Assembly: GCA_964622145.1 (NCBI GenBank)
Contig: CAZUOK010000001.1
Location: 1 to 42,348, forward strand
Reading direction: 5' to 3'
Source: Candidatus Woesearchaeota archaeon
GTDB lineage: Archaea; Nanobdellota; Nanobdellia; CAYMVK01; CAYYFB01
Length of the DNA stretch: 42,348 nt
Numbering within the stretch: the first letter of the stretch is position 1; each line of letters begins with the position of its first letter. Below are positions 873 to 36,449 of the stretch, one piece after another. The translations under genes were made by a program, and so were the position numbers. The notes beneath the pieces are model-generated. The model searched no databases. It was not told the origin of the DNA and worked only from the letters and a program-made list of their open reading frames with translations.

Positions 873-875
873 AAG

Positions 876-11784: not shown

Positions 11785-14700
11785 ATGAAAAACGTATTTA
11801 AACATAACTGTGAAAGATATTTAAAGAAGGATGAAATTTGGGGGTGTTTGATGGAGATTTGGAAAATTATTCCTGTTGCTTTCATGATCTTTCTCCTCCT
11901 CCCTATCAACATAGCCGCACTTAATTTGACAAATTCCACAAATAAAACAGCTTCTTCGAGGAAATTCTACGAGATTTTCTTTGAAAATCCTGAGAGACAG
12001 TGTAAAGGAAGTGTGGCTATTTATGGAAGGGTCCTTGAGAATGGGAAGGGGTATACAGGACCCATAGAGATTTCTGTAAATGGGACACTGTACCAAGTTT
12101 ACTCGGAGAATGGGAGATTTAAGATGCCTATAGAACTTGAAACTGGGAGATATGAAATAATTGGAAGTATTGGGGGTTACTCGAGCAGGACCTTCATAGA
12201 AGTAGTAAATTGTGGAGAAGTTAGGTTGTACTACAATTCCTCTTGCGAGCAGGTTACTTTCTGGGGATACGCAAAGATAAACGGAGAGAATTATACGGGA
12301 TTTGGAAGACTAATTGTAAATGACTCCGAGATTCAAGTTGAATTCCTGAATGGGAACATGATACCTTACTCCACAACCCTTCTCCCCGGAAGGTACAAAG
12401 TTTCTTTGGAGGTCCTCGGCATAAGAGATACAAAAATTATTATTGTTCAATTGTGCAAACCAACACTTGTTGTTAACAATTATACTATTTGTGCGCAATT
12501 TGACAAACCATTTATTGTTGTAATAGGGAATAACACGTATGATGTTAAGGGAAAATTCTGCAGGGAACTGCCACCTGGAAGGTACAATGTAACGGTTAGA
12601 TGGGATGAAGGATCTATTTCAAGCGAGGTATTTCTACCAAGGATTGATATAAAGATGAGGAAAGTGTACTCACCAAGAGAGAGCATTTTATTTAAAGTGT
12701 TCTCAGACATCTACCCCGTTTGTTATCAGATACCAGAGATAGGAATATCCAAGTGTACAAACCACACAACGATAAGGATTGGGAAGCTAGAAGAAGGGAA
12801 CTACACATTAGTGATAAAGGTTGGGGATGTTACATTAAAGAGATACTTCAGGGTCTTCAGGAAGGTAATAAGAAAGATATTTGGAGAACATGAGTTCATC
12901 ATAGAAGGGAATGTTAGTGTTGAGAAGGTTGGGGAAAAATATGTATTGAAAGGCTCTGGCTTTGTTTCTCTGAACCTCACCTCAAACCCCTTCATTATAT
13001 CGTACGCTTGGGAAAGGGCTGGAAAAAAGTATAAGCCTCTAAACCTTTCCTTCGAAATAAATGGAACAAAGGAGATTATTCTTCCTAGGAGGTCTAGGTT
13101 TGATGTTGGGGTTGTAAAGAAGGGGAGCATTGCTGAAGTAATAGCGGAGCATAGAAAAATGTTTTTGAAGGTTATTGGGGGTACATTTGACAAGGTATTT
13201 GTTGTGGATCCCGAGAGTATACCTGAGAAACCAAGAGAATTCCCAAATAAATTATTAAAAGTTTATATAAGGACAAACGAATCGAAAGTAAGACTTTATT
13301 TGAGTAAGAAGTACAGGTACCCAGAAGTTTGGAAGTTCAACCCAAAGAGGTTTGAGTGGAGGAAGATAGGGTATTCTATAGAAGGGGATTATATTGTTGT
13401 TACTCTTGAGGATGGAGGTCCCTTCGACGAGGATGGAGAAAAAAATGGAGTAATTGTTGATGATATTGGAATAACAACAAGTTGGTGGAACGAGAGCTGG
13501 AAGTGGAGAAGGATATACAATATAACTTCATCAAAGAATCAGAATATAACAGGTTTCCCAGCCTACATTATAGTAAACACCAGCAAACTAATCTCTGAGG
13601 GAAAGATGAGGGGTGATTGTGGGGACGTAAGATTTACCTTCTGGAATAGGACGAGCAATTCTGAAGAGGAAATCCCCTATCTCTTTGTTGGACCCTGTAA
13701 TTCAAGTCATTCCCTAATCTGGTTTAGATTACCAGTTCTCTATGATAACTCCACAAGCACAACAGTTTTTATGTACTTTGGAAATCCAAATGCAACAGAT
13801 AACAGTGATCCCCAAGCAGTTTTCCCAGGATTAAGGGCATACTGGGCATTTGAGGAAGGTAGTGGGAACGTTACGAAAGATTACTCAGGAAACAACTTTG
13901 ATGGAGTATTGACGGATGTTGCGGGTGGAGATCCCCCACTTTGGAGGAATACATCTTCCTGTGTTGTAGGATATTGTATTGAGAGTGATGACATTGGGGA
14001 TGCTGTGAATCTCAGCTATTTGGCAGTCAATGGTCTTGATAATGTTACATTTGAGGCTTGGATAAAGACAACAGATAACAGGTGGGGTTTAATAAGCGGG
14101 GCAAATTCTGGACAAGACAACGAATATCTTATCTATCTTGAGACAACTCCAGAGCTTAGACTGTATATAAAGGGATCATATGATGGTGTACCTCCAGGAA
14201 GCCTCACTGATGGTAATTGGCATCACCTCGTTGTTGTTAGAAATTCTGATGGAACGGCGGAATTTTATCTCGATGGCTCCCTCCTGGGGACGGTCTCAGG
14301 ACTAAGAACAGGAACGCTTACTATAGATCCAAATGGGCTCTGGTTGCTCCAGGAACAAGATTCCGTTGGAGGGTCATGGGACACTACACAAGTATTTATA
14401 GGATTGGTAGATGAGGTTAGAATATACAACAGATCCCTCTCTCAAGACGATATCCAAAAAAGGGTAACAAACTATACAAAGACACTTGTTCTCGAAGAAT
14501 ATCTAGCAAAATTGAATGTAACTATAGATTATCCATCCGAAGGATTTGTTGCAATAAGATATGAACCCTTCTGGTTAAATGGGACTGTGCATTGTGTTAG
14601 AGGAAATTGTAGCAACGTATCCGTTTACGCTCAATACATAGAACCCACTGGAATATCTGGGGAAGTTATCGAGGATACACAGCAAGATTTCATAAATTAT

Positions 14701-17700
14701 TCAGAAAAAGTAAACGTATCAATATTTGACTACCTAAAACTCCAACCCGAGACTGGGAAAAGTTGGTGGAATGAGAGTTGGAGGTATAGGATGAAGATAA
14801 ACATATCTTATACGGGACAAGGAAATTTGACGGAGTACACTGTCAACGTAACAATTGACACACAATCACTAATAACACAAGGAAAGATGAGTCCAAATTG
14901 CTCCGATATTGTTTTTACATACTACAACCAAACGACGGAGAGCGAATACGAAATTCCTTACTGGATAGAATCGGGTTGTAACACAACAAACACAGTAATC
15001 TGGGTAAGAGTTCCTCTGATAAGAAACTCCACAAATGAAACCATTTACATGTACTATGGGAATCCAAATGCGAAAATATACTATGATCCCGACGATGTCT
15101 TCGAATATTTTGTAAATTTCACGAAGCTTGGCGTTCAATCTGCGTATGGTTCTGGCCAAGACATTACCCCAAACAACTGGGAGATTGTTAATGACACCAT
15201 TCTGCATCTCTGGGGAAACAACTGGAAAGGTGTTTATTACGGTCCAATAAAGATAGAGGGGGATGGTTCCCAGATACTGGAACTCTACATGAACGGTACA
15301 GATACCGCTGAGATATATGGAGTAGGATTCGATGTAGATCTTGACAATGTGAATGATGCCCGAGGATCCTTCTACAAGTTTGCTGGGTCACAAGCATGGG
15401 GACTAACTCCAGACCAAAGCTACACAAACTTTGGGAATTGGCAGAGAGTTTACGCAATTTTGGATGATTTTTCTGGTCAGTATTTATACTTTATCTTCTC
15501 AAACGATGACGATGCGGACTCAAACGGAAATGTCTGGTATAAGAACGTTAGGGTGAGGAAATACGCAACACCAGAACCAACAGCAACAGTGATTGGGGAG
15601 GAAGTATTGAGTATAAGGCCATCTGGATACTACATCTCAAAGGTAATTGACTTGGGTTCTCAAGATGTCAGGTTTGGGAACATATATTGGATTGCAAAGG
15701 TACCACAAAACACTTCCCTCAAGGTTTATACAAGGAGTTCAAGTGATGGGGTTGCTTGGTCCGTGTGGTACGAGGAGATCAACAACACGGATGTGAACGC
15801 TCCGGACGCAAGGTACATCCAATATAAAGTTGAGATGACAAGTCAGGATCCAAACAAGACCCCAATCTTTGACAAAATTGTTATAGAATACACGTACACC
15901 GCCCCGAAATTCAAAGATATGAAATCTTCCGGAACCCCATTCACAACCACAAATCCGTACGACTGTGGTGTACTTGATCAAACAAACAACGTTTGTTACC
16001 CATCCTTCCAGGTAACCCCAACGGAGAAAGGGAACTTCACATTAAGATTGCTCGCAAACTCCACGGACACGAACATAGAGCCGGCGGAATCCCAGTGGGT
16101 TAACATAACAGTTTATGAGAGGACATACATAACGGATTTCAAGATACAACCCTCCGTTCAATATAAGGGAGGTTCTGTAACAATTTCTGTAAGACTTCTT
16201 GATGCATCCTCAAATCCCATCCCAAATCAGAACATAACCTTTACGGATGAAACGGATGGAACAACGATTGGATCAGTCCTAACAGACTCTAACGGATACG
16301 CTGTTATCCAATACAACATCCCAAGAAACGCTTCCTTAGGCTATCACACAATAAGGGCAGACTATCCTGGGAATTCATCCCTATTCTATTACTCCTCCTG
16401 GTCAACGGAACAACTTAAAGTATCGAGCTCTCCACAGTTCTGGGAAATAGGAACAAACGATACCTACATAGGGACAGGGGAAAGAGTCAAGATCTTCGCA
16501 AACGTAACGGACGAAGTTGGACTGGACACAGTCCTTGTGTTTATAACATATCCTAATGGAACAGAAGTCAATAGGACAATGACTTACAACAAGGCTTCAG
16601 GATACTACGAATACGTTACGGAAAAGCTTTGGGAAAAGGGGAATTATTCATTCTATATATGGGCAAACAACACTGATGGAATAGAGAACAAGTCATGGAC
16701 GGAGAACTTCTATCTGAAGATTGTTGGTAGGCTGGATGTGTCAACAGAGAAAGAGAAGTACAAGAACTTTGAGATATTGCATCTCTCAAACATGAATAGG
16801 GAGTGGGACATGCCAGGATATGCTTATAGAAGATGGTTGAGCATATATTCAAATCAAACGGAATGGGGAACAGCTGTTCTAAGGGTTGACACAAAGTCTT
16901 TAATATCAGAAGGGAAGATGAACCCGGACTGCTCTGATATAAAGTTTGCAAAGATAACGACGATAGAAGAGATAAAGGTCCATATTGACAACCCCTATGG
17001 AGTTTACAGATCCGACTTCGTTTTCCCAATTGAGATAACAGATAAAAGATTCTTGGGGAAGGTTGATCCAGCAGGTAGGGATATAAGAATATTTACGTAT
17101 AAGACAGACCAGCCCTACTCCCAAGAGCCAGATGTTCCCTTCTGGGTAGAAAGCATAACGAGCTCAAGAGCTAGGATCTGGATAAGACATAACCTCCCAA
17201 TAAACGGTCTTGATCTTTACATATATTATGGAAAGCCTGGAGCGGAAAGCAAGAGTAACTACACCGCGGTGTTCAAGGAAGTTGTTGGGGAGGCTGGGAT
17301 AGTTTATACAAATGACTCTTGGGTCAACTTCTCTTACCTGAATTCAACAGGAGATACCGTGTTTGTGTTCTCAAGCATAAATACATACTATGGAAGTGAT
17401 GAGGCATTCACAAGGATAACAAAGGTAAATTCTTCGGGATTCCATGTCTTGATACAAGAATCTGTTGCTCTAGATCAAAGTCATGCTTATGAAAAGATAG
17501 GCTGGATAGGATTTAGAAAGGGGGCTTGGATTGTCTGTGGTAAAGTGATATACGTAGGGAACGATTCCATAGATTCGAATTACAAAACGGTTACCGTCCC
17601 ATACTCCTTCCAGGATCCTGTCTGGGTAAGCCAGATACAGACCTTCTATGAGACTGATCCTGCCCATACAAGGATGAACAACCCAGGATCAAATTCCATA

Positions 17701-26700: not shown

Positions 26701-29700
26701 GAAACTTACAGAGAGGTCGTTGACCTGGTATGTCAGGTGAAGGATTACGACACCGGAAGTCCGATAAGTGATTATGTTGTAGAATTCTACAACTCCACAA
26801 GCTATTTGGGATCAAACAAGACGGATTCAAATGGATATGCTAGGCTTAGAGTTGATCTCTCAAGCTACACGCCAGGATACAACACATTCTACTGCAAGAT
26901 TGTAAAAGATGATGAGAAATATTATGATCCCGCGGTATCTTCTGTTGGAAAGGATGTTCTTATAAAGGGAAAACTCAATGTGACAATAGTAAATCCTGAG
27001 AATGGAAGCTCTCTTGAAAGAGGGGAGACGTACTGGCTAAACTCAACAACATATGATGAATTTGGCAACAAGGTAACACCTGATTCATCATATTGGTTTG
27101 AGGGGCAAACGGAGATAGGATCCGGAGAGAACATCACATGGACTGTTCCATCGGATCATCCCCTCGGTCCAACAGTTATAAAAGTAAACGTTACAAAACA
27201 ATACTACGATCCCGCTGAGGACAACATAACAGTGTACATCTACGGTCATTCCTCAGTTGTGTGGGTATCACCAGAAGATGGGAGCTATCCATCAGGAAGC
27301 ATCCTGGAATTGATATGTTATGTAAACGACACAGATAGAAATTCTGGGATATCTGGATATCCCGTAAGCTTCTACTACAATGGAACCCTCATAGGGACAT
27401 CTAATACAAACTCAACAGGTTACGCTGTAATATCATGGGATACTTCAGGATTGGATGGAACGTACAATGTAAGTTGTGAAATTGGAAACTACAGTTATTA
27501 TATAGCAAAGAAAACATCAGATTCCACAATGATTGAGGTATACCTTGACACAACACCACCAAACGTCACGATAGTATCTCCAGAGAACAAGAGCTACAAC
27601 ATAAATACAATACCTCTGAATTACACCGTACAAGACGAACACTTGGATTCCTGTTGGTACGAACTTGATGGGACGAATTACTCACTTCCAAATTGTGAGA
27701 ACACAACGCTTACAAACTTACAGGAAGGAAGTCATTATGTAAGGGTCTATGCGAACGATACTGCTGGGAATGTTGGATATTCCGAAGTTTGGTTTACTGT
27801 TGACCTTACAAGTCCCGTAATAACCATAATATCTCCCGAAAACAGAACGTATGGTGAAACAGGAATTTGGATGAATATAACACTAAATGAGGCTGGAAGT
27901 GTGTGTATGTACTCTATAGATGGTGGACAAAACCAAACAATGAACAAGCTTAACGATACTTACTTCTACAGGTTCGCATCTGTTGGAGAGGGAACTCACA
28001 AGGTCAAATTCTTCTGTAACGATACCGCAGGGAACTGGGGGAGTGCCCAAGAATTCTTCACAGTAGATCTAACGGCCCCCACAGTAACACTCTACGAACC
28101 CGAAAACAATAGTGTTCTAGATCAAGGCAATGTAACCTTCAAATGCTATGCAGAAGACAATCTAAAACTCATTAACGTTACTCTATACACAAACAAGTCT
28201 GGATCTTTCTCTCCAGAGCTAACAAACTCGAGCGGGATAAATGGAAATTATACATTCAAACTAACAATGTCAGAAGGATATTATATCTGGAACTGCAAAG
28301 CTTGCGATGATATCAGATGCTCATTTTACTCAGAAAATTGGAGCTTCTATGTGGACTTGAATGCTCCCACTGTTACAGTAGTATCACCGGAAAACAAGAG
28401 TTACAATACGAATACAATACAACTAAATTATAGTGCAAGTGACTTAACCTTGGATTCCTGTTGGTACGAACTTGATGGGACGAATTACTCACTTCCAAAT
28501 TGTGAGAACACAACGCTTACAAACCTTGCGGAGGGATCCCATCATCTAATCGTTTATGCGAATGACAGTTTGGGTAGAGTAGGATATGATGAGGTTTGGT
28601 TTAGAGTTGATTTGACACCTCCAAGCCTTGTTGTTGTCTCTCCAGAGAACAACACAGAGTATGGGACTCCAAACGTCCCACTAGAGTATTCCGTCTCCGA
28701 TAACATAGAGGTGGATACTTGTTGGTACGTCCTTGATGGCGGTCAGCCAACAGTATTGCTAAACTGCCAGAACACAACGCTATCTCTTGACAACGGTCCA
28801 CACAATATAACTGTGTACGTAAACGACACTGCCGGAAACACGAACCAGAGCTTTGTACAATTCACAGTAAACTCAACAGCCCCATACGTAAAGATCCTAC
28901 ATCCTGTTGAGGGGAACTACTACAACAACCAAACCATATGGTTGAACTATACAGTACAGGATACGGATCTTGATTCCTGTTGGTACAGCATAGACGGTGG
29001 AGACAATGTTAGCATTCCAAACTGTCAAAACATAACCATAACGGTCTCCGATGGCTCACACAATGTGAAGGTATATGCAAACGATAGTCTTAATCAGATT
29101 GGATGGGATTCTGTGAACTTCTTCGTTGACACTGTCCCCCCAAGCCTTGTGTTGATATCTCCGGAAAACAAGAGTTATAGTGAGAATACGATATGGATAA
29201 ATTACACCGTGAACGATACAAATCTTGATTACTGTGTTTACGAGCTGGATGGCTCGAACACAACAGTATCTGATTGTAGTAATGTAAGTCTGGAGTTGTC
29301 AGAGGGAAGCCACTACGTAAGGGTGTTTGCATTCGATAAAGCAGGGAACTACAACGTAACCTCAAAGGTCTGGTTCACAGTTGACACAACACCACCAAAC
29401 GTCACGATAGTATCTCCAGAGAACAAGACGTACACTGTGAACGATATCCCACTAAACTACACGGTATCTGATAACTTCGAGATATCCATGTGCTGGTATG
29501 TCCTGGACTCCCAGGAGGAGGTCTATCTACAAGGCTGTCAGAACACAACATTAACGAATGTTCCTGATGGGAGTCATAGGATAAGGGTCTATGCGAATGA
29601 CTCTGCTGGGAATGTTGGATACTCTGAGGTTTGGTTTACTGTTGACACAAGGGGTCCGAACATATATTTCGTCCCACCAACCCCAGGAGATAACCAAGCT

Positions 29701-32700
29701 ATAGATTACAATTGGACTTACATAAACATAACAACGGATGAGGATGCTAGCATCGCAATACTGGAATTCGATTTCAACAACGGTACGGTTTTGAACTTTA
29801 CCATGAATCAGAACAATCCAAGGAATTGGTGGTACAATGTTACGGATCTCCAGGATGGGACGTACTATTATAGAGTCCATGCGAACGATACCTTCGGCAA
29901 CTGGAATACAACAGCATGGAGAACTGTCAGGATCTCTGTTGGGGCTCCAGCAATAAACATAATATCTCCAGAGAACAAGACATACAAGGATTCTAACTAC
30001 ATCCAGCTGAACGTTACTGTGAACAAAGAGGTTTCTGCTTGGTGGTATTCAATAAACAACGGTAGGAATATCACCTTCACTCCAAACATATCCATAGCCG
30101 CAAGGATTGGATCAAATGTTGTAAGGGTCTATGCGAACGACTCTGCTGGGAATGTTGGATACTCTGAGGTTTGGTTTACTGTTGACACAACCTTCTGGGA
30201 GGACAAGTTCGATCACTACAGTGGTCTTGAAATCTGGGAAAATATAACAATAGAAAATGGGAGTGCAAAGATAAGATTCTGTTATCCAGTATTTGAGCCT
30301 GATTGCTGGAAATATAGGGTAAGAATAAATGTATCAAATCCAGACACCCAAGACCACACAGATGTCCAGCTGAATCTTACTGTGGATACACAATCCCTTA
30401 TATCTGAAGGGAAGATGAATGGGAACTGTTCTGACATAAGGTTCACTTACTACAATCAGACCAGTGGGGAAGAGTACGAAATACCTTACTACATAGAATC
30501 GGGATGTAACACAACAAGCACGATAATCTGGGTAAAGGTTCCCTTCGTCCCCGCGGGAGGCAGTTCCATTATATACATGTACTACGGAAACCCTGGAGCT
30601 CAAGGAAGGTCAAATATCTCAGAGGTATTCAATTATTACAACAATATCGGACAGTGTAATGGCTCGGTGGCTGGGGGAAGCTGTTCAGTAATATTTGATG
30701 CCCCAGCTGGGGAAGTATTCTACGAGGCAAATCTCACTATGAGGATGGCTGGAGACTTCGGATATGGAGGATCATTCTCATCAGATGCTGTTTGTGATGA
30801 GAATTATGAGAGGGCAAATCTTATTGTTGACGGATCGGTAATAGGTTGTTATTCCACAGGCATTGATGGTTGTACACTGAACGAGCCTCCGGGGATGCCA
30901 GTAAGCATAGATGTCAGGAACAAGGGATCCGTAAATGTTACAGGAGATTCCACGGATGTTGTAAATCTTGATCCAAACAATTGTGGATTCTACTATAAGT
31001 TCGAGTTTGAAATAAGTGGATACACGAGGAAGAATGCTACCCTAGAGTACTCTGTTGGAACTGAAGAAGTTGCAATAAGGAATGCAAAGATTAGGAGCAT
31101 AGCAATAAAACCAAGGAAGGTTGCAAGATGGTTGAAGTTTTATGGTGTACACAGCATACCAACGGGGACAGGAATTGAGTACAGGATCCTTGACAGCAAC
31201 AACAACACCCTCCTTGTCTGCAATTCTGAGACAGCACAGACTGGTTGTGATCTCTCAGGTATTAATGCAAAAGAAATAAAATTAGAAGCAGTATTGACAA
31301 CAAACTCAGAGGCTACTCCAGAACTCATGTACTGGAATGTATCCTGGACACCAAACTCAAGTGTTGCGATAAACGTCATAAATGAGACCTCTGGAACCAT
31401 ATCGAACGCTCTTATAAGAATTCTAAGAAATGGAACAGTATTGGCTGAAGGTTATGGAAGTGTTGTTGTAGATGTTGAGATATACGAAAACTACACAGTA
31501 GAAACAATTACAGGAACATCTTATGGAGATCTCCTGCTAAGACTCTTTGAGCTCAATGTTACAAAGGATACAATAGAAATAAAGGAACAAATTGTTGAGA
31601 ACTACACAGGAAACCTCCCACAAAACATCTGGAAGGTCACTCCAGTTGTTGCTCTGAACGACACAGACTTGAATTACTCCAAGGCGACGCTTGTGATACC
31701 GAAGGGAGATGTCCAAAGCATTGATTATATATTACACTGTACGGACTGGAACTACACCTCAGCAACATGTAACAACTGGGTTACATCAGATCCAAACAGT
31801 TACGAGGGATTTGGTGAAAACTCAACACACTTCTGGTTCAACGTGACAGGATTCCAGGCATACGCTGGAGGGACTGTAGGATATGATGTACAAGTGAATG
31901 AAATAACATTTAACAAAACAAAGCCTGTTGAAAATGAAACCGTGCTTGTAACAGCAAATGTGAGTAATGAGGGAAGTTCTGATCTCACAAATGTTACCAT
32001 AAGGCTTGAGATATATCTATGGAATGAAACTTCAGGAAGCTGGATACTGGATGAGAGCTATGAGAAGAACGTCTCAATACCCGTAGGAAACTACACACTC
32101 GTAAACTTTACTTGGACGGCAAAGATAGGTACCTACAATTTCACAGTAATTGCAGATCCCTACGATCAGATTGATGAGGTAAACGAGAGCAACAATGCAA
32201 ACTGGAGCGAGCTAAATGTTTCCGCATGGACAATATACTATGGACACGTGAATGGTTGGATAGTTATAGGAGGAAACAACGGAGAAAACTTTACGGTTTG
32301 GATACCTTATATGATAGAGGGAAATCTTTACTTTGCAGATCAAGACTCAAGCTTTGAATTTGAGAATCTCATGCCATTAAATGGAACAAACGATCTTGAA
32401 GAGCTGGATGAAGCGCTTAACATGAGCATATACAAAGATTCTGTATCAAACGTTTATGATAAGGATGGGGATGGTGTACCAGACCACACGGATTGTTTCA
32501 GCATAGGTAACAGGCTCCTATGCGATGTGCCAGTAGTAAATTCAACCGAAGAAAACAACGGAAACTTTGTTACAGGGATACTTTGGGATTCAGGAGATGG
32601 AGGAACAGAGTACAATGGAACACAAGATGTTGTTTTTATAACGAAGGTAAACTATAACAAAACAGGAAGTTTTGGAAGATACGACTACGAGGTAAGAATA

Positions 32701-32766
32701 CCCGCATTGTTGAGGGATCTCAAGGGAACTGTAGACAAGATCGTAATATACGTGGAGATCAAGTAA
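11785..32766 (+). CDS. Giant (6,993-codon) multidomain cell-surface glycoprotein/adhesin-like protein with DUF2341, LamG, Ig-like and CARDB modules
   Basis: One uninterrupted ORF of 20,982 nt. AAGGAG lies 5 nt upstream of the ATG at 11785. An alternative ATG at 11851 gives a classical signal peptide. There is no C-terminal TM. NxS/T sequons are frequent throughout the ORF. Recognisable modules are listed as separate features below. Confidence 0.95.
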   Translation: MKNVFKHNCERYLKKDEIWGCLMEIWKIIPVAFMIFLLLPINIAALNLTNSTNKTASSRKFYEIFFENPERQCKGSVAIYGRVLENGKGYTGPIEISVNGTLYQVYSENGRFKMPIELETGRYEIIGSIGGYSSRTFIEVVNCGEVRLYYNSSCEQVTFWGYAKINGENYTGFGRLIVNDSEIQVEFLNGNMIPYSTTLLPGRYKVSLEVLGIRDTKIIIVQLCKPTLVVNNYTICAQFDKPFIVVIGNNTYDVKGKFCRELPPGRYNVTVRWDEGSISSEVFLPRIDIKMRKVYSPRESILFKVFSDIYPVCYQIPEIGISKCTNHTTIRIGKLEEGNYTLVIKVGDVTLKRYFRVFRKVIRKIFGEHEFIIEGNVSVEKVGEKYVLKGSGFVSLNLTSNPFIISYAWERAGKKYKPLNLSFEINGTKEIILPRRSRFDVGVVKKGSIAEVIAEHRKMFLKVIGGTFDKVFVVDPESIPEKPREFPNKLLKVYIRTNESKVRLYLSKKYRYPEVWKFNPKRFEWRKIGYSIEGDYIVVTLEDGGPFDEDGEKNGVIVDDIGITTSWWNESWKWRRIYNITSSKNQNITGFPAYIIVNTSKLISEGKMRGDCGDVRFTFWNRTSNSEEEIPYLFVGPCNSSHSLIWFRLPVLYDNSTSTTVFMYFGNPNATDNSDPQAVFPGLRAYWAFEEGSGNVTKDYSGNNFDGVLTDVAGGDPPLWRNTSSCVVGYCIESDDIGDAVNLSYLAVNGLDNVTFEAWIKTTDNRWGLISGANSGQDNEYLIYLETTPELRLYIKGSYDGVPPGSLTDGNWHHLVVVRNSDGTAEFYLDGSLLGTVSGLRTGTLTIDPNGLWLLQEQDSVGGSWDTTQVFIGLVDEVRIYNRSLSQDDIQKRVTNYTKTLVLEEYLAKLNVTIDYPSEGFVAIRYEPFWLNGTVHCVRGNCSNVSVYAQYIEPTGISGEVIEDTQQDFINYSEKVNVSIFDYLKLQPETGKSWWNESWRYRMKINISYTGQGNLTEYTVNVTIDTQSLITQGKMSPNCSDIVFTYYNQTTESEYEIPYWIESGCNTTNTVIWVRVPLIRNSTNETIYMYYGNPNAKIYYDPDDVFEYFVNFTKLGVQSAYGSGQDITPNNWEIVNDTILHLWGNNWKGVYYGPIKIEGDGSQILELYMNGTDTAEIYGVGFDVDLDNVNDARGSFYKFAGSQAWGLTPDQSYTNFGNWQRVYAILDDFSGQYLYFIFSNDDDADSNGNVWYKNVRVRKYATPEPTATVIGEEVLSIRPSGYYISKVIDLGSQDVRFGNIYWIAKVPQNTSLKVYTRSSSDGVAWSVWYEEINNTDVNAPDARYIQYKVEMTSQDPNKTPIFDKIVIEYTYTAPKFKDMKSSGTPFTTTNPYDCGVLDQTNNVCYPSFQVTPTEKGNFTLRLLANSTDTNIEPAESQWVNITVYERTYITDFKIQPSVQYKGGSVTISVRLLDASSNPIPNQNITFTDETDGTTIGSVLTDSNGYAVIQYNIPRNASLGYHTIRADYPGNSSLFYYSSWSTEQLKVSSSPQFWEIGTNDTYIGTGERVKIFANVTDEVGLDTVLVFITYPNGTEVNRTMTYNKASGYYEYVTEKLWEKGNYSFYIWANNTDGIENKSWTENFYLKIVGRLDVSTEKEKYKNFEILHLSNMNREWDMPGYAYRRWLSIYSNQTEWGTAVLRVDTKSLISEGKMNPDCSDIKFAKITTIEEIKVHIDNPYGVYRSDFVFPIEITDKRFLGKVDPAGRDIRIFTYKTDQPYSQEPDVPFWVESITSSRARIWIRHNLPINGLDLYIYYGKPGAESKSNYTAVFKEVVGEAGIVYTNDSWVNFSYLNSTGDTVFVFSSINTYYGSDEAFTRITKVNSSGFHVLIQESVALDQSHAYEKIGWIGFRKGAWIVCGKVIYVGNDSIDSNYKTVTVPYSFQDPVWVSQIQTFYETDPAHTRMNNPGSNSINIKIEETNTADTPHTYENVAYLVTEQFVCESGNFKIATGKKYHRQSSDVSATAGWTYYDLPNFPTTPVVVAKIMTERGGDNVHERIKDVTTDGFNYAMEEESGYDGPHIEEWNGYIAVTPGPIYGAKLEDTWPTTTIVEGPNVIAKTIEEIPHYLKSNCNQNDTEILVNLKQVSEGENRVYMYYGNPYDKEIENTGEDAINVFTYPSQYCSYVVLGIGGSSMDIVSYSHNNIISIGGTTITLNKGEYTTVSVSNGDEICSTGPISTGTQSTGDGAPAVPKTWAGKTFVVAVTRYNPVYFDIYALENATIRVYNSTGTGWTLVEEFSLSEGEYIQKSYPGGDSRVTTIEVSYLINSTGNILVFYRGKSDDYMPLTPANTELYLNPTQYLVIAAIYDNTNVNIYFSDGSSTTVTLNAGQGWVGGAYGSDGNANSVRIVSDKPIFAYQQADSDGTETTPGVSPKYMDRIFFFPQDAEYFVATTKTNKTTYCALYDTNGTLVNEWTVTASYPYPGKIGYGTGQDGTINIRKGYKLVCNESVIVIYEESSNDAETILYGPSAHAKIINVTYNDLGIEEDYYVNIENNGNETIRGYIYAIIQRFEDGQWVNVPPAIINDRASENLRVIGPGESLNLTYLWEYYGAWNTSSNPNGRYRVYVRFEDEKGNVITDWYGNPLEDYGYFEIIPADLSIINLTHKAMYEKDLEEYETNDTIDWINLTVTSLENTGIDTRVYLTFIDESGKYVGFGPNSEERTCGTIEENNTCSVSYGPVTIPENTGNLVVRFKVNLTAQNSGGAIFDTRGINFRYAVPLDVEEISGNNLINYPVMLILNVSDLINKGKVRSDLADLRVLDDKKKEVPRLILDYNETHKIIFFPTNLSANERKTYYLVYGNSSLSQPSYPDVYMFEYLSGYDQWKTISDSRQNLIIIAYFNNTKFKVEGGINVNGTLNAGEFYKVELPTNSQYSPLKYIIKTTKPVTVIIGSTELSRPNGATYSLDYLSRPYGRYFLTWGMDGSTSGNLTIFVTENDTVISVKNMSSGNYLIQNQVYNFGDVVHLSTSPHVFEINSSKPVLVVISQDDAFTSRDIGYRIPSFNGTWDGTYFKFYLTYAGGFYIVNPNDHPINYTVSGCITGSGTVGPKSSVLITGGTAGSLCEVWTTERALLFSEIYADVQYYITSLDGATTGKEFVYRVEDPYQGGNVVIGIHVLFDGTDVQDGCSGVYWTNLNKGWHYYRNAKSSGECRIIASKPIVVLLMVSEQEPSYTVSVPEWHMDWKEKPIIRVYKEISTRIFVHDIPSTFSSTPPERLYQNGPPVYYNFSMKNLWRENITNLAIRINCPNLPGLTCECVDNPGHPYCNVGNLTPNQEITVSFKITATEDTPTGNYIVNATVSYLNPLGNNKTWREVEPQTLEIRTYGIMEITVYSYPENVTRGSNATFKAYANNTGDQTAPEAWLAYSVYPSGWSIVEGSRNVTATNVSPGQIFWNNVTFYVSQSSSLGAQQVKLESGSSLDQKDFKVVTIYVYANTTLNIWLNDTDASRGEYVEVFAKLMYDNGTPVKGQKIEFYDETDNRFLGSSITNSQGIASVIYYLNESVSLGTHTINASYPGNSTLYLNPSENRTTLEVGLKPTIHWIEIVPSIVGYGKNVTIRANVTDDKGVSNVTAEIISPDGEKETVVLQNVYSTIYEREYSPKWLNGTYNVTVIAEDTSGSITKAFSQFQVEIESEILVETEKQSYLPTENVRLKKNTIFPLKYKVEIKIRSNESVNITEYQIMITFNSSKLISEGKMRDDCGDLRFSWLNKSSGEEVEIPYFLDYGCGEGETVVWVKVPLVYANNVTTIYMYYGNPAVTSDSSEFDVFTFEKENATTFWTVSSESVGQNLDIQAFLNNTSVIWEGSSQKIQNGTSYQLSSPSSQTSTLSHDKPIFGAFEGDTTEALHPISWAGKKFAYYVYRGTNEWHICAPFGDAKVQIYDGTTLLATYNIQKGNCIVANNDVTDGSVVIIESNESILVQHVDTTNNYDSRILYPVSTRLYGVPSERFEIAAIEDGTTVNIYCSDGYTNTLTLDRGQGWDYAIGGSEGTAPACVIISNKPVGANSLADSDGTETTTFLPLEELDRYYVFPQPVQYVAVAAPFDETTCTLYNPDGTVYDSQTAYVSGNAPGKIYFGSTTDGTNIQAGSYMICNKPVFAYYEYATTNDETQLFGPKANRKYSPRIYVESFGNETLAVSQVINYKRIFEGYIIAEVEKKIGESWVRKSVLVNDTTTGTRREFNLSLFDLSKVIPAWNPEGETGEFRMKIYVTDPEGNILNTTDGKLIGYAYFNVSQPPLKLNVSEIRVYETPYGEHGGGTLVDKGINKTFILESGKVYRFEIDVDVLSDSQTWNITEANVTFENLNQSWIIDVQNDVWYLNQTDTAERLGGLFTNGILKWNTSENDGTADNGTKVTFYFILNLTGASEEERGVLFRIETPTTIVKDFDTLKIIVPDTTPPNPVIYGLNTTEIFRGESVLAYAQWNEEIKNATIEYNSTTKFLNNYTIPGPYTNNWTNYTIETTSLWLLGRHYVRIYASDLSDNWNKTPAMYFKVYGLAYVSSISTNNSNPLVGDTVKITCLILDDTNDQGIENYNVSFWVNNSYIGSNLTNSSGYAEITYQFTSPGSYEIKCNITEDLDRYYKVDNRNEKSTTVFVRETEPPKWWEVVYPSLAHKGDTVNLSVRWKDNFELDYAILSTNESGTMENVSYMKLSGKDAWANFSYQIPTTISPGYIIWKQYANDTSNNWNVTDEYLIEVWGWAEVSNAVVNPSSIQQGGTTTMYCKIVDANQTTVGIEGYNVSFYLGNTLLGYNLTNSSGWAEYTFTVNTAGTYTVKCIIGDYPEKKYNASSKNEGSDTLTVSATEDIYPPQIVDNNYGLNATKIYRYDAILVYGQWNETIDTAWVEYNKTSSLITETVPGPYTNNWTNHTIVTDDAWTPGVHVVKLYANDTSGNINDTLPYLSFEMWGRSAVYWVSPNETYREVVDLVCQVKDYDTGSPISDYVVEFYNSTSYLGSNKTDSNGYARLRVDLSSYTPGYNTFYCKIVKDDEKYYDPAVSSVGKDVLIKGKLNVTIVNPENGSSLERGETYWLNSTTYDEFGNKVTPDSSYWFEGQTEIGSGENITWTVPSDHPLGPTVIKVNVTKQYYDPAEDNITVYIYGHSSVVWVSPEDGSYPSGSILELICYVNDTDRNSGISGYPVSFYYNGTLIGTSNTNSTGYAVISWDTSGLDGTYNVSCEIGNYSYYIAKKTSDSTMIEVYLDTTPPNVTIVSPENKSYNINTIPLNYTVQDEHLDSCWYELDGTNYSLPNCENTTLTNLQEGSHYVRVYANDTAGNVGYSEVWFTVDLTSPVITIISPENRTYGETGIWMNITLNEAGSVCMYSIDGGQNQTMNKLNDTYFYRFASVGEGTHKVKFFCNDTAGNWGSAQEFFTVDLTAPTVTLYEPENNSVLDQGNVTFKCYAEDNLKLINVTLYTNKSGSFSPELTNSSGINGNYTFKLTMSEGYYIWNCKACDDIRCSFYSENWSFYVDLNAPTVTVVSPENKSYNTNTIQLNYSASDLTLDSCWYELDGTNYSLPNCENTTLTNLAEGSHHLIVYANDSLGRVGYDEVWFRVDLTPPSLVVVSPENNTEYGTPNVPLEYSVSDNIEVDTCWYVLDGGQPTVLLNCQNTTLSLDNGPHNITVYVNDTAGNTNQSFVQFTVNSTAPYVKILHPVEGNYYNNQTIWLNYTVQDTDLDSCWYSIDGGDNVSIPNCQNITITVSDGSHNVKVYANDSLNQIGWDSVNFFVDTVPPSLVLISPENKSYSENTIWINYTVNDTNLDYCVYELDGSNTTVSDCSNVSLELSEGSHYVRVFAFDKAGNYNVTSKVWFTVDTTPPNVTIVSPENKTYTVNDIPLNYTVSDNFEISMCWYVLDSQEEVYLQGCQNTTLTNVPDGSHRIRVYANDSAGNVGYSEVWFTVDTRGPNIYFVPPTPGDNQAIDYNWTYINITTDEDASIAILEFDFNNGTVLNFTMNQNNPRNWWYNVTDLQDGTYYYRVHANDTFGNWNTTAWRTVRISVGAPAINIISPENKTYKDSNYIQLNVTVNKEVSAWWYSINNGRNITFTPNISIAARIGSNVVRVYANDSAGNVGYSEVWFTVDTTFWEDKFDHYSGLEIWENITIENGSAKIRFCYPVFEPDCWKYRVRINVSNPDTQDHTDVQLNLTVDTQSLISEGKMNGNCSDIRFTYYNQTSGEEYEIPYYIESGCNTTSTIIWVKVPFVPAGGSSIIYMYYGNPGAQGRSNISEVFNYYNNIGQCNGSVAGGSCSVIFDAPAGEVFYEANLTMRMAGDFGYGGSFSSDAVCDENYERANLIVDGSVIGCYSTGIDGCTLNEPPGMPVSIDVRNKGSVNVTGDSTDVVNLDPNNCGFYYKFEFEISGYTRKNATLEYSVGTEEVAIRNAKIRSIAIKPRKVARWLKFYGVHSIPTGTGIEYRILDSNNNTLLVCNSETAQTGCDLSGINAKEIKLEAVLTTNSEATPELMYWNVSWTPNSSVAINVINETSGTISNALIRILRNGTVLAEGYGSVVVDVEIYENYTVETITGTSYGDLLLRLFELNVTKDTIEIKEQIVENYTGNLPQNIWKVTPVVALNDTDLNYSKATLVIPKGDVQSIDYILHCTDWNYTSATCNNWVTSDPNSYEGFGENSTHFWFNVTGFQAYAGGTVGYDVQVNEITFNKTKPVENETVLVTANVSNEGSSDLTNVTIRLEIYLWNETSGSWILDESYEKNVSIPVGNYTLVNFTWTAKIGTYNFTVIADPYDQIDEVNESNNANWSELNVSAWTIYYGHVNGWIVIGGNNGENFTVWIPYMIEGNLYFADQDSSFEFENLMPLNGTNDLEELDEALNMSIYKDSVSNVYDKDGDGVPDHTDCFSIGNRLLCDVPVVNSTEENNGNFVTGILWDSGDGGTEYNGTQDVVFITKVNYNKTGSFGRYDYEVRIPALLRDLKGTVDKIVIYVEIK
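11795..11802 (-). promoter_or_regulatory. TATA-like box (minus strand TTTAAATA) for the 10123..11769 operon
   Basis: Centred about 29 nt upstream of the ATG at 11769 on the minus strand. Confidence 0.35.
11817..11825 (+). promoter_or_regulatory. TATA-like box (ATATTTAAA) that would serve an ATG at 11851 of the giant gene
   Basis: Centred about 30 nt upstream of the in-frame ATG at 11851. That ATG starts a textbook signal or anchor sequence (MEIWKIIPVAFMIFLLLPINIAA). Confidence 0.35.
12010..12858 (+). repeat. Four small beta-sandwich repeats with [PT]GRY signature (carboxypeptidase-regulatory-like, tentative)
   Basis: Recurring ends are ETGRYEIIGSIGG, LPGRYKVSLEVLG, PPGRYNVTVRWDEG and EEGNYTLVIKVGD, spaced about 60-75 aa apart. 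Confidence 0.5.
13483..13824 (+). repeat. DUF2341-like module 1
   Basis: WWNESWKWRRIYNI...LISEGKMRGDCGDVRFTF...EIPYLFVG...LIWFRLPVL...VFMYFGNPNA...AVF. Confidence 0.8.
13831..14460 (+). other. LamG / concanavalin-A-like jelly-roll domain (Laminin_G_3 type)
   Basis: LRAYWAFEEGSGNVTKDYSGNNFDGVL...VTFEAWIKT...GNWHHLVVVRNSDGTAEFYLDGSLLGT...FIGLVDEVRIYNRSLSQDDI. This is the full canonical motif series of LamG_3 domains. Confidence 0.85.
14764..15102 (+). repeat. DUF2341-like module 2
   Basis: WWNESWRYRMKINI...LITQGKMSPNCSDIVFTY...EIPYWIESGCN...VIWVRVPLI...IYMYYGNPNA...DVF. Confidence 0.8.
16825..17274 (+). repeat. DUF2341-like module 3 (atypical, with internal partial duplication)
   Basis: YRRWLSIYS...LISEGKMNPDCSDIKFA, then a second N-half (FPIEITDKRFLGKVDPAGRDIRIFTY), then VPFWVESI...RIWIRHNLP...LYIYYGKPGA...AVF. 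Confidence 0.65.
17275..18141 (+). repeat. Three-fold internal repeat domain with R..[GF]...E[ES]...H..E signature (family not identified)
   Basis: The three units are SDEAFTRITKVNSSGFHVLIQESVALDQSHAYEKIGWIGF, TDPAHTRMNNPGSNSINIKIEETNTADTPHTYENVAYLV and GGDNVHERIKDVTTDGFNYAMEEESGYDGPHIEEWNGYIAV. Confidence 0.55.
18142..18309 (+). repeat. DUF2341-like module 4 (C-terminal half only)
   Basis: EIPHYLKSNCN...EILVNLKQV...VYMYYGNPYD...NVF. The N-terminal W..W/ISEGKM half is missing. Confidence 0.6.
18310..19370 (+). other. ~350-aa beta-rich module, copy a (follows DUF2341-4)
   Basis: Internally repetitive strands of the type x-T-x-V-x-[IV]-Y...L-x-x-G-[EQ]...S-x-KP-[IV]-[FV]. Contains WAGKTFVVAV, NVNIYFSDGSSTTVTLNAGQGW, SDKPIFAYQQADSDGTETT and LVCNESVIVIYEE. 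Resembles IgGFc-binding-N-terminal-like beta-solenoid or sandwich modules (unverified). Confidence 0.5.
20116..20406 (+). repeat. DUF2341-like module 5 (divergent)
   Basis: NYPVMLILNVSDLINKGKVRSDLADLRVLDD...EVPRLILDY...KIIFFPTNL...YYLVYGNSS...VYMF. Confidence 0.6.
20407..21465 (+). other. ~350-aa beta-rich module, copy b (follows DUF2341-5)
   Basis: Same strand grammar as copy a: NTKFKVEGG...LNAGEFYKV...TTKPVTVIIG; NDTVISVKN...NFGDVVHL...SSKPVLVVISQ; ECRIIASKPIVVLLMV. Confidence 0.45.
22939..23259 (+). repeat. DUF2341-like module 6
   Basis: KYKVEIKIRS...LISEGKMRDDCGDLRFSW...EIPYFLDYGCG...VVWVKVPLV...IYMYYGNPAV...DVF. Confidence 0.8.
23260..24300 (+). other. ~350-aa beta-rich module, copy c (follows DUF2341-6)
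   Basis: Collinear with copy a: WAGKKFAYYV, TVNIYCSDGYTNTLTLDRGQGW, SNKPVGANSLADSDGTETT, MICNKPVFAYYEY, QLFGPKA (compare ILYGPSA in copy a). Confidence 0.55.
25132..27543 (+). repeat. Four tandem ~200-aa di-domain (A-B) Ig-like units
   Basis: A-type stretches: GPYTNNWTNYTIETTSLWLLGRHYVRIYASDLSDNWN and GPYTNNWTNHTIVTDDAWTPGVHVVKLYANDTSGNIN. B-type stretches: GIENYNVSFWVNNSYIGSNLTNSSGYAEITY, GIEGYNVSFYLGNTLLGYNLTNSSGWAEYTF, ISDYVVEFYNSTSYLGSNKTDSNGYARLRV and ISGYPVSFYYNGTLIGTSNTNSTGYAVISW. Confidence 0.75.
27544..30183 (+). repeat. Ten tandem ~85-95-aa Ig-like repeats (SbsA/Big/HYR-like G-S-H-x-[IV]-x-V-Y-A-N-D-x-A-G-N signature)
   Basis: Unit consensus: D-[TL]-T-P-P-x-V-x-[IV]-[IV]-SPENK-[ST]-Y...[IL]-x-LNYTV-x-D..LD-x-CWY-x-LDG.N....NC.NTTL..L.EGSH.[VI]RVYAND[ST]AGNVGYSEVWFTV. 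Units 3 and 9 are divergent. Perfect DNA repeats of 76, 48 and 52 nt link non-adjacent units. Confidence 0.85.
30307..30630 (+). repeat. DUF2341-like module 7
   Basis: CWKYRVRINVS...LISEGKMNGNCSDIRFTY...EIPYYIESGCN...IIWVKVPFV...IYMYYGNPGA...EVF. Confidence 0.8.
31882..32220 (+). other. CARDB domain
   Basis: YDVQVNEITFNKTKPVENETVLVTANVSNEGSSDLTNVTIRLEIY...GNYTLVNFTWTAKIGTYNFTVIADPYDQIDEVNESNNA. The canonical CARDB ending E-x-NE-x-NN is present. Confidence 0.8.
32221..32763 (+). other. C-terminal S-module of the giant protein (homologous to small secreted proteins S1/S2); contains a D-x-D-G-D-G-x-x-D Ca-binding-like motif
   Basis: AWTIYYGHVNGWIVIGGNNGENFTVW aligns with HWAGVFGNATGKLILGDASGYKLYEW (S1) and KWVGFWGEVSGQIVLGDSSGNIFYQW (S2). 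The end DYEVRIPALL...KIVIYVEIK aligns with NYQVILPEN...TYYVWIELV and DYQVLAGVN...TFYFYLELP. DKDGDGVPDHTD sits at 32458-32493. Confidence 0.6.
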
Positions 32767-35759: not shown

Positions 35760-36449
35760 ATGATTAAGAAACTGCTTGTACTCTTTGCAGTGTTGCTGTT
35801 ACCAATGGCATTCTCGGTACCAGCAAACGCAACAGTATCTGCAGGTACATCAGAGAGATACCCAGAAGCAACAACTCCAGGAACTGTCACAGCGCAAGCT
35901 GGAAATGTAACACAAGTAAACGTGTCCAGTGTACAAGTAACAGGAAAATGGGTAGGTTTCTGGGGAGAGGTAAGTGGACAAATAGTGCTCGGAGATTCTA
36001 GTGGGAACATATTCTATCAATGGACAATATCCGATCCTACAGGGGCTGTTGTGTATGTGTGTAATGACACAGTTTCGGACTGGTCAACCCTACAGCCCCT
36101 GTATGCAAACAGCAGTGTTCTTCCGGACTTCCTGATAACAGGAACAGATTCCTTCAACAACACATTCAAATATCAAGAAACATTCACAAGTCCTAGCATG
36201 ACGATAAACAACGTAAATTACACACTTACATGGCAGAATGGTGCTGAAGGTTCAGACTTCAAGACATATGCATTGTACGCAAATGAAAGCGCAACAACTG
36301 GTAAGATAATACTTGTCTGGGCAGGCCTTGTAAACGCAAACAAGCCATCATTCAAGGGAGGGACTATAACAGCTGATTACCAGGTATTGGCTGGAGTAAA
36401 CACAGAGGGAGGACAACAAACATTCTACTTCTACCTAGAGCTACCGTGA
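35760..36449 (+). CDS. Small secreted protein S2 (S-module family; paralog of 1324..2040)
   Basis: 229 aa from ATG 35760. The track ORF starts at 35694, but that extension covers the TATA box and lacks signal-peptide character. Signal peptide is MIKKLLVLFAVLLLPMAFSVPANA. Collinear with S1 (see that feature). Confidence 0.85.
   Translation: MIKKLLVLFAVLLLPMAFSVPANATVSAGTSERYPEATTPGTVTAQAGNVTQVNVSSVQVTGKWVGFWGEVSGQIVLGDSSGNIFYQWTISDPTGAVVYVCNDTVSDWSTLQPLYANSSVLPDFLITGTDSFNNTFKYQETFTSPSMTINNVNYTLTWQNGAEGSDFKTYALYANESATTGKIILVWAGLVNANKPSFKGGTITADYQVLAGVNTEGGQQTFYFYLELP

Follow-up and report, generated by a model that had tools for sequence, protein, structure and literature searches.

One open reading frame (ORF), 11785..32766 on the plus strand, spans half of the 42,348 bp of contig CAZUOK010000001.1 that were analysed here, a stretch which we call the window, and it is by far the largest ORF found in it. 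In our reading, to which we give a probability of roughly 60%, it is a genuine gene carried by a thermophilic archaeon of the DPANN type, and its product, an exported glycoprotein of ~6,970 amino acids (aa), would be a host-contact fibre docked through a conserved C-terminal domain (CTD). The giant itself is not a new kind of object, since giant surface proteins of DPANN archaea are already known. What is new here is the predicted CTD, a confidently modelled domain without a match in Pfam, NCBIfam, PDB or BFVD; the small proteins flanking the giant gene, which are stand-alone copies of this CTD; and the linkage of the CTD to a co-encoded CWB2-like membrane-anchored protein, observed in 83% of the fetched loci.

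The CTD comprises ~190 aa at the extreme C-terminus of the giant and carries conserved motifs, among them VPIxNSTNNxNFxTGILWD, with a near-invariant NST sequon, and GxYGxYDYEIRIPxxLR (coordinates of all features are collected in Table 1). Its AlphaFold2 (AF2) model, built from 38 sequences, reaches a predicted local distance difference test score (pLDDT) of 89.6 and a predicted template modelling score (pTM) of 0.84. No match to the domain was found in Pfam at E<=10 or in NCBIfam at E<=1, and Foldseek comparison of the model gave no significant match in PDB (best E 0.22, TM-score <=0.21) or in BFVD (best E 0.016, TM-score 0.19). When the CTD was combined with the preceding CARDB domain into one profile, PDB sequences returned small CARDB-like structures only, through the CARDB part. 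An exhaustive search of 1.84 billion representatives with this profile gave 6,809 matches at E<=1e-3, of which 3,090 reach E<=1e-10 and 1,228 reach E<=1e-30. The shortest are fragments of about 300 aa and the longest match has 7,158 aa. Among the top 150, the profile aligns end-to-end at the C-terminus in most cases, and ~15 of these proteins are at least 5,000 aa long; some top matches are CARDB repeat proteins and were not counted as members of the CTD family. In every homologue found the CTD lies at the extreme C-terminus, the host proteins ranging from ~500 to >2,500 aa in the fetched loci. Judged by these profile matches, the CTD terminates well over 1,000 protein clusters, and the giant appears to be a member of a large uncharacterised CARDB+CTD surface-protein family that is found mostly in DPANN archaea.

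The original prediction had noticed that related small proteins flank both ends of the giant gene, and these are homologues of its CTD. A Sec-type leader, a short linker and a diverged CTD copy make up each of them; both end in a tail of the ...YYFYVEL type that resembles the large proteins, and neither has a match in Pfam (E<=10) or NCBIfam (E<=1). A CTD profile built from large proteins only hits them at E 7e-09 and 5e-05, and profile-profile comparison (hhalign) gave a probability of 98.8% (E 6e-17) over 164 columns, which is the basis on which we regard them as stand-alone CTD copies. Together with the CWB2-like membrane-anchored protein, they are the widely conserved partners of CTD proteins, partners that the original prediction had not identified, and the window holds two genes of each kind.

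The two CWB2-like proteins of the window, 547 and 548 aa long, belong to an unannotated family whose members are otherwise about 565-590 aa (including loci L062-L145). The AF2 model places beta-alpha repeats at aa 19-273 and beta-sandwiches at aa 282-520, followed by a transmembrane (TM) helix. Foldseek with the whole model gave tandem Ig-like matches only, e.g., transglutaminase barrels. Against PDB, the family profile matched residues 154-328 of Clostridioides difficile Cwp6 (5J72, E 3.6e-12), which fall within its central CWB2 triad (PMC5842191), and in C. difficile such CWB2 triads attach the surface proteins to a polymer of the cell wall (PMC4973711, PMC5842191). The family seems to be a distant archaeal relative of this clostridial cell-wall-binding module, and the proteins of 2186-3829 and 10123-11769 would be distant CWB2 members.

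Gene linkage was counted in 35 loci of at least 8 kb among 80 metagenomic loci fetched with the CWB2-like profile. A CTD gene is present in 29 of the 35 (83%), a small stand-alone CTD gene in 28 (80%), and a large CTD protein in 12. The order of a large CTD protein, one or two small CTD genes and the CWB2-like gene is seen in L067, L110, L115, L133, and L136, and the adjacency of the small CTD and CWB2-like genes also in a metagenome-assembled genome (MAG) of Nanohalarchaeota (L009). Neither family occurs in 44 control loci from other lineages that matched through the CARDB part only. In L081 (between 1 and 8776), L112, L073, and L092, three to seven small CTD genes lie upstream of one CWB2-like gene, and by analogy such runs resemble the major and minor subunit sets of filament systems.

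This gene arrangement also admits another reading, in which the small CTD proteins would assemble as polymers, either a fibre or a lattice, on a CWB2-like membrane base, and the large CTD proteins, the giant among them, would join through their CTD as tip or decorating adhesins, in the manner of the tip adhesins of bacterial pili. The CTD indeed occurs both alone and at the end of large proteins, the small genes often form one to seven tandem copies directly upstream of the CWB2-like gene and beside large CTD proteins, and DUF2341, a domain which recurs in the giant, has elsewhere been linked to inferred pilus-tip adhesins of archaea (PMC4858521). However, the leaders are Sec-type and not of the class III pilin type, the window holds no pilus ATPase or TadC gene, and the CTD model does not significantly resemble any known pilin, CanA or a tail-tube fold; we therefore consider such a filament distinctly unlikely.

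That the giant ORF is a real gene is clear from the frame itself, in which 6,993 codons follow an ATG without any internal stop, in a window that contains no N letters. A 21-kb stop-free frame in DNA of 41% G+C cannot originate by chance. The frame thus stands as originally predicted, a single uninterrupted one over half of the window, whereas its start does not, as the true start is probably Met23 (11851) and not Met1. The gene as publicly called on this contig (P0001) begins there and has 6,971 aa. The minus-strand ATG at 11769 and the plus-strand ATG at 11851 diverge from an 81-nt spacer (11770-11850). Two TATA-like boxes lie in it, a minus-strand TTTAAATA (11802-11795) and ATATTTAAA (11817-11825), and either box is ~30 nt away from its own ATG. 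Because ATATTTAAA precedes ATG 11851 by this distance, 11851 is taken as the likely start, and the spacing suggests that both divergent transcripts are short-leader or leaderless.

A Kyte-Doolittle scan of the whole protein detected one hydrophobic segment (aa ~20-49) and none at the C-terminus, in agreement with the predicted N-terminal helix and the predicted lack of a C-terminal TM helix and of PGF-CTERM. A PGF-CTERM/archaeosortase substrate was considered and rejected, the C-terminus being a folded hydrophilic domain of ~190 aa that ends in ...VIYVEIK and has no hydrophobic stretch. The homologues P0002 and P0003 start with short Sec-type leaders, and the leader of the giant is predicted to be cleaved. 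NxS/T sequons, described earlier as frequent throughout, number 292 against 98.3 +/- 8.6 expected from 1,000 shuffles (z = 22, approximately threefold enrichment) and are distributed over the entire length; the archaeal homologues are enriched as well, and a Planctomycetota protein hit through LamG is not. Based on these features, the giant is predicted to be Sec-exported, surface-located and heavily N-glycosylated.

Relatives of the giant were searched with aa 1-5000 as the query. Three full-length homologues (P0002-P0004) of 6,711, 6,835, and 6,803 aa are collinear with it, in single high-scoring segment pairs of 3,000-3,600 aa at ~35% identity, and the last ~290 aa are better conserved in all three. 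A fourth relative, of 6,806 aa in locus L064, is 51.6% identical over the last 1,681 aa. In a four-way MAFFT alignment (P0001-P0004) conservation is lowest over the N-terminal ~500 aa (17-21% identity). For aa 3250-6993, identity per 100 aa is roughly 20-50% and in most stretches 30-50%, and it peaks in the last 70 aa. Two segments, ~aa 1820-2520 and ~2720-3220, are present only in the window giant and not in the three full-length homologues, and they are diverged internal duplications. No characterised homologue with the architecture of the giant was found, as had been claimed; the collinear proteins of 6.7-6.8 thousand aa are uncharacterised.

A long frame of this kind might also be produced by repeat collapse or expansion during assembly, or by gene fusion in a decaying pseudogene. 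The protein is partly repetitive, the two segments just mentioned are missing from the three full-length homologues, and a neighbouring gene carries a frameshift. On the other hand, the internal repeats are only 25-58% identical in amino acids and their DNA copies at most 83% identical over at most 251 nt, which is too diverged for mis-assembly, and Tandem Repeats Finder detected no tandem DNA array inside the ORF. The frame runs for 21 kb without a stop, independent assemblies yield collinear proteins of nearly equal length, and the sequon enrichment and conserved C-terminus argue for selection. Collapse or expansion is unlikely because the internal repeats are diverged and collinear homologues exist in other assemblies, and we regard an artefact or pseudogene as highly improbable.

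The giant was scanned with Pfam and NCBIfam both as a whole protein and as ten overlapping pieces, and the outcome agrees with the domain list originally given, namely seven DUF2341-like modules, a LamG domain, a CARDB domain and Ig-like arrays. Pfam reports DUF2341 above threshold at five places, and a hidden Markov model (HMM) made from self-similar segments of the giant recognises exactly seven such modules, one of them a half module and one with an insertion. Ten Ig-like repeats of ~86 aa, almost all of them directly following one another, can be made out from aa 5252 to 6131, and Ig-like families along the protein are Big_1, Big_3_5, Big_7, Big_13, PKD, Glucodextran_B, and Invasin_D3. The variable N-terminal region has no significant Pfam match, and a search of PDB sequences with the N-terminal 450 aa gave no match. 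No catalytic, ATPase or TM domain was found in the whole-protein Pfam/NCBIfam scans. In our reading the giant is a long chain of beta-sandwich modules, and the DUF2341 and LamG/pentraxin modules set among them are likely binding sites for glycans or proteins. Two further candidates were rejected: an enzyme-bearing glycoside hydrolase, as only accessory beta-sandwich domains and no catalytic domain are present, and a target of a diversity-generating retroelement, as no reverse transcriptase occurs among the ORFs scanned.

The host of this gene is most probably a thermophilic, ultra-small DPANN archaeon. Reverse gyrase is a hallmark of (hyper)thermophiles, and the C-terminal 427 aa of its gene lie at the window end (41065-42348, minus strand; TIGR01054, 528 bits against a cut-off of 472). 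A Taw3 gene and a coding density of 96% complete the evidence for the compact thermophile-type archaeal genome that had been predicted, and the cytoplasmic proteins of the window have an IVYWREL fraction of 0.505, an extreme thermophile-type composition. Scanning of species-representative genomes with the C-terminal module gave 17 full-length matches, all archaeal. Thirteen come from MAGs labelled Nanoarchaeota/Nanoarchaeia, Pacearchaeota, Woesearchaeota or Nanohalarchaeota, including the best one (L001, 58% identity), which like L012 is labelled Nanoarchaeota/Nanoarchaeia; the remaining four are labelled Methanosarcinales (L003 and L008) or just "archaeon" (two). Its closest relatives are MAGs from vents that carry the label Woesearchaeota or Nanoarchaeota, a Woesearchaeota-labelled vent MAG (L017) has homologues of the island proteins at 32-53% identity, and one homologue of the CWB2-like partner is assigned by its NCBI name to Candidatus Woesearchaeota. 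CTD proteins also occur in bins not labelled DPANN, namely L003, L008 (Methanosarcinales), and P0009 (Bacteroidota), which could be mis-binned DPANN contigs or a true non-DPANN occurrence. The earlier statement that proteins of such size are rare in archaea was overstated, as giants are a recognised DPANN trait (PMC10266531) and homologues of 6.7-6.8 thousand aa exist; the same source gives sizes of up to 9,409 aa for nanohaloarchaeal giant surface proteins. Since the host is most likely a DPANN archaeon and giants are known there, the window giant is less exceptional than was assumed.

We propose the following course of display. The giant would be exported through Sec with cleavage of its signal peptide, and its C-terminal CARDB+CTD would dock it to the cell envelope. 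The docking partners would be the co-encoded small stand-alone CTD proteins and/or the CWB2-like protein, whose triad would sit atop three Ig-like domains above the C-terminal TM helix. The N-terminal ~500 aa, with their low conservation, would project outward together with the DUF2341 and lectin-like LamG modules and form the distal, ligand-binding part of a long fibre contacting a host cell or a substrate. Terminal modules common to hundreds of different surface proteins usually serve in anchoring or sorting and not as ligand heads, and it is because of this usual role, and of the gradient from a conserved base to a variable tip, that we favour an orientation with the CTD proximal to the cell.

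The opposite orientation, with an uncleaved N-terminal signal anchor and with CARDB+CTD as a distal head for a common ligand such as a host glycan or the CTD of another cell, would agree with a sole hydrophobic helix at the N-terminus, with a CTD that has no known anchoring fold, and with an n-region of 27 aa in the leader read from Met1, which is atypical for a cleaved signal peptide. Yet it sits poorly with the general role of widely shared terminal modules, with an N-terminus that is the least conserved part of the giant, with homologues that have short ordinary Sec leaders, and with the tight linkage of the CTD to a membrane-anchored partner gene, and we consider it unlikely.

Several points nevertheless count against the CTD-docked fibre. 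The location, cleavage and glycosylation of the giant are predicted from sequence, its orientation could be reversed, with the N-terminal anchor uncleaved and the CTD distal, and the DPANN placement of its host rests on submitter labels of related MAGs. Known CWB2 triads bind a bacterial wall polymer that archaea lack, and single sequences of the CWB2-like partner match neither the Pfam CWB2 model at E<10 nor any NCBIfam model at E<=1. The co-occurrence of CTD and CWB2-like genes is a count with no formal background rate to set it against, these genomes may just hold many CTD genes, and the small CTD and CWB2-like genes of the window lie outside any operon shared with the giant.

As a broader and more tentative proposal, the CTD, the small CTD proteins and the TM-anchored CWB2-like protein might together form an undescribed surface-display or filament system that is widespread among DPANN archaea, with the giant among its largest cargoes as a long-range host-contact fibre. 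If this is true, it would be a general way in which wall-less DPANN episymbionts hang diverse proteins of up to 7,000 aa on their envelope.

Table 1. Coordinates of the giant gene, its modules, and the neighbouring genes of the island in the window.
Feature	Nucleotides	Residues (aa)	Strand	Basis or remark
Giant gene, probable CDS	11851..32766		+	Public gene call and TATA-like spacing; 6,971 aa
Signal-peptide-like N-terminus (MEIWKIIPVAFMIFLLLPINIAA)	11851..11925		+	Hydropathy scan
Variable N-terminal region	11926..13164	48-460	+	MAFFT of P0001-P0004, 17-21% identity
Choice-of-anchor-U-like segment		501-564		Pfam/NCBIfam scans
DUF2341-like module 1	13489..13887	569-701	+	Self-comparison, Pfam scan, own HMM
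LamG/pentraxin-like (concanavalin A-like lectin) module	13996..14463	738-893	+	Pfam Laminin_G_3 E 3.7e-21, Pentaxin E 3.5e-16
DUF2341-like module 2	14770..15165	996-1127	+	Pfam, own HMM
DUF2341-like module 3, with insertion	16819..17328	1679-1848	+	Pfam, own HMM
DUF2341-like half module 4	18124..18384	2114-2200	+	Own HMM; within window-specific duplicated segment
DUF2341-like module 5	20101..20478	2773-2898	+	Own HMM; within window-specific inserted segment
NPCBM_assoc (NEW3) beta-sandwich	21973..22197	3397-3471	+	Pfam E 1.1e-07 and 5.1e-10 (two scans)
DUF2341-like module 6	22930..23331	3716-3849	+	Pfam, own HMM
Alternating A/B Ig-like modules, ~100 aa each	25111..27366	4443-5194 (pairs fill 4451-5250)	+	Self-BLAST, own HMMs; Big_1, Big_3_5, Invasin_D3
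~86-aa Ig-like repeat array	27367..30279	5195-6165	+	Own HMM; Big_13, Big_7, Glucodextran_B, PKD matches
DUF2341-like module 7	30289..30699	6169-6305	+	Pfam, own HMM
CARDB domain	31891..32199	6703-6805	+	Pfam E 5e-09; conserved tandem with CTD
Conserved CTD, ~190 aa, extreme C-terminus	32194..32763		+	Profile searches; AF2 pLDDT 89.6
Second small stand-alone CTD protein	1324..2040		-	Paralogue of 35760-36449, 29% identity; CTD profile E 5e-05
CWB2-like membrane-anchored protein	2186..3829		+	AF2 pLDDT 90.2; signal peptide, three alpha/beta repeats, three beta-sandwiches, C-terminal TM helix
Beta-helix/NPCBM_assoc protein, C-terminal TM helix	4445..6702		-	Frameshift-split here; single 758-775 aa gene in relatives
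Secreted 580-aa CARDB protein, divergent operon	6704..8446		-	Pfam; kept in relatives
Secreted 547-aa protein, divergent operon	8447..10090		-	Conserved in relatives
Paralogue of CWB2-like anchored protein	10123..11769		-	First gene of operon diverging from giant
MoxR-type AAA+ ATPase	32801..33811 (ORF from 32777)		+	Pfam AAA_3 E 1.5e-55; 69.5% identical to L064 neighbour
DUF58 protein	33789..34724		+	Pfam; neighbour in relative locus
BatA-like VWA protein, N- and C-terminal TM helices	34715..35707		+	Pfam scan
Small secreted stand-alone CTD protein: signal peptide, linker, CTD homologue	35760..36449 (ORF from 35694)		+	hmmsearch E 7e-09

Around the giant, the minus strand upstream carries five ORFs, which correspond to four genes in relatives and encode secreted or anchored proteins (CARDB, NPCBM_assoc). 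The 547-aa protein of this operon has no match in Pfam (E<=10) or NCBIfam (E<=1), and comparison of two upstream proteins with PDB sequences was uninformative. The split gene consists of the overlapping ORFs 4445-5893 and 5854-6702, and the L064 protein matches frame -1 over aa 2-304 and frame -3 over aa 298-774; the frameshift near 5860-5881 may reflect a real pseudogene, a programmed event or a sequencing error. In L064/L065, which come from a vent-deposit assembly and GCA_015521535.1, the 6,806-aa giant is followed by a 119-aa gene and then by MoxR, DUF58, and VWA genes (69.5%, 65.7%, and 50% identical to those of the window). After VWA come a small CTD protein, a CWB2-like protein, a 151-aa protein and four minus-strand genes homologous to the 4445-11769 operon. 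In L017 the end of the giant, the four operon genes, and MoxR with DUF58 follow each other on one strand, and in L062 the block is present and neither a giant nor MoxR lies within 10 kb. The gene set of the window is conserved yet rearranged among relatives at 40-70% identity.

The original prediction made the giant the organising element of an island with a divergent operon upstream and a MoxR/vWA cassette downstream. This layout holds, and the combination of a giant ORF with MoxR-DUF58-vWA recurs in related MAGs (L064/L065, L017), but MoxR as a general partner does not hold, being present in only 2 of the 35 CWB2-like loci. One could still suppose that MoxR, DUF58, and VWA form a machine which has the giant as its client or as one of its parts, that the AAA+ chaperone and the VWA proteins mature or attach the giant, and that the island has its functional core in this link. 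The giant, MoxR, DUF58, VWA, and small CTD genes lie on the same strand with overlaps or short gaps, 11-35 nt from giant to MoxR and 53 nt before the small CTD gene, and the adjacency is kept in L064/L065 and, past the four operon genes, in L017. Beyond the scarcity of MoxR in the CWB2-like loci, however, it is missing near the CTD genes of L001-L016 and in the otherwise syntenic L062 block. Where the adjacency is conserved, the loci are closely related (50-70% identity), and common descent therefore accounts for their synteny. Many prokaryotes that have no giant proteins also possess MoxR-DUF58-VWA operons. Such a machine is thus a very unlikely core of the island, and the cassette is better described as a lineage-specific neighbour and not a general partner, possibly an assembly helper.

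Some further features of the window were noted. Immediately after the CWB2-like gene, 3854-4285 (plus strand) encodes a protein of 143 aa that begins with a TM helix and is helical in the rest of its length; a 151-aa gene takes its position in L062 and L064/L065, and that of L064/L065 is a homologue with 32% identity. An A/G-rich imperfect repeat (AAAGAAAAGAAAAAG, ~3 copies) lies at 4318-4368 between the convergent genes 3854-4285 and 4445-5893. Two tandem short genes, 37892-38380 and 38368-38880 (plus strand), encode one MgtE-type transmembrane domain each with 31% mutual identity, and the pair looks like a split divalent-cation transporter; it is preceded by a 179-aa ORF without a Pfam match (37356-37895). 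The island is bordered by nucleotide-sugar genes, namely 876-1262 (minus strand; cupin, mannose-6-phosphate-isomerase-like), 39418-40491 (plus strand; GlmU-like sugar-1-phosphate nucleotidyltransferase/acetyltransferase) and 40488-41072 (plus strand; HAD/beta-phosphoglucomutase-like hydrolase), which may supply glycan precursors for the sequon-rich proteins. The sole RNA gene found in the window by ARAGORN and Rfam is a tRNA-Thr (anticodon CGU) at 800-872 (minus strand), and 38881-39417 is a stretch of 537 nt without a confident gene, overlapped only by the TTG-started ORF 38619-39452.

DPANN archaea need physical contact with the cells of their hosts, and little is known of the way in which they construct their surfaces and attach themselves. 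Among the closest known systems is SPEARE of Nanohaloarchaeota (e.g., SVXNc_0300, 9,409 aa; PMC10266531, citing Hamm et al. 2019), which likewise comes from DPANN archaea, has many thousand residues, a Sec-type N-terminus, Ig-like arrays and a presumed role in host contact, and whose gene takes a noticeable share of a tiny genome. In the description given by PMC10266531, SPEARE has a membrane-spanning part, a cytoplasmic VirB4/TraG-like ATPase and a VirB4-like neighbour, whereas the window giant ends in CARDB+CTD, is rich in DUF2341 and LamG modules, and has MoxR (AAA_3) as its neighbouring ATPase. Membership in SPEARE was rejected, as the defining TM and ATPase parts are absent from the giant by hydropathy and Pfam/NCBIfam scans. 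A secretion or invasion conduit into the host, which the similar size, signal peptide, Ig-like arrays and DPANN host might recall, is hardly credible for a protein that lacks C-terminal TM helices as well as a VirB4/TraG-like ATPase domain and whose gene has no VirB4-like gene beside it; the only other giants among the hits (P0005, P0007) match Ig-like/LamG modules alone, and neither is identified as SPEARE, although no direct comparison with a SPEARE sequence was made.

DUF2341 is shared with the MJ1470-type proteins (arCOG03508), predicted adhesins that are connected with type IV pili (PMC4858521), and occurs in the giant in seven copies. Like the giant, these are large extracellular proteins for which a role in adhesion has been inferred, and such proteins are found repeatedly in ultra-small prokaryotes that depend on a host (PMC4858521, PMC11809585), among them Patescibacteria with proteins of >4,000 aa (PMC11809585); a hydrothermal-vent survey paper mentions giant proteins for Patescibacteria only. 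The giant differs from these adhesins in repeat number and C-terminal module. A type IV pilus locus was rejected, with no pilus ATPase, TadC or class III signal-peptide pilin among the window ORFs scanned with Pfam/NCBIfam and with Sec-type leaders on the neighbouring proteins. The MoxR-DUF58-VWA cassette has all three genes of Bat-like operons; their domains are typical, and the VWA protein is BatA-like and carries TM helices. Its association with a giant is confined to close relatives; we know of no role of such operons in the display of giant proteins.

Archaeal S-layer lattice proteins are self-assembling, are among the most highly expressed proteins, and are typically 40-200 kDa in size. 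Because of its ~770 kDa, the giant is unlikely to be a lattice subunit. The locus is comparable in architecture, not in sequence, to the two-component SlaA/SlaB S-layer of Sulfolobales and to the SlaA/SlaB-like candidates that were proposed for Nanobdella aerobiophila (bioRxiv 10.1101/2023.10.27.564410): a membrane-anchored stalk with a signal peptide, beta-sandwich domains and a C-terminal TM helix is encoded beside secreted, heavily N-glycosylated, Ig-rich proteins without a TM helix, and beta-helix (pectin-lyase-like) and lectin-like surface proteins are encoded nearby, whereas the giant is ~5-7 times larger than known S-layer proteins. No S-layer protein or surface anchor of a DPANN archaeon had been determined according to the same work. 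The Cwp/S-layer proteins of C. difficile (PMC4973711, PMC5842191) share the CWB2-like triad and the principle that one conserved module ties varied surface proteins to the envelope; there, the triad lies within each displayed protein and binds the wall polymer PSII, whereas in the window it belongs to a separate TM-anchored archaeal protein and the displayed proteins carry the CTD instead.

Set against these systems, the giant resembles the adhesin-type giants of episymbiotic ultra-small prokaryotes and is a moderate surprise. The cassette of the CTD, the small CTD proteins and the CWB2-like protein is the more useful result, as it makes surface anchoring in DPANN archaea testable. If its parts interact, they would constitute an anchoring system for a whole class of host-interaction proteins and would provide tags for localisation, pull-downs and host-range studies, thermophilic members included.

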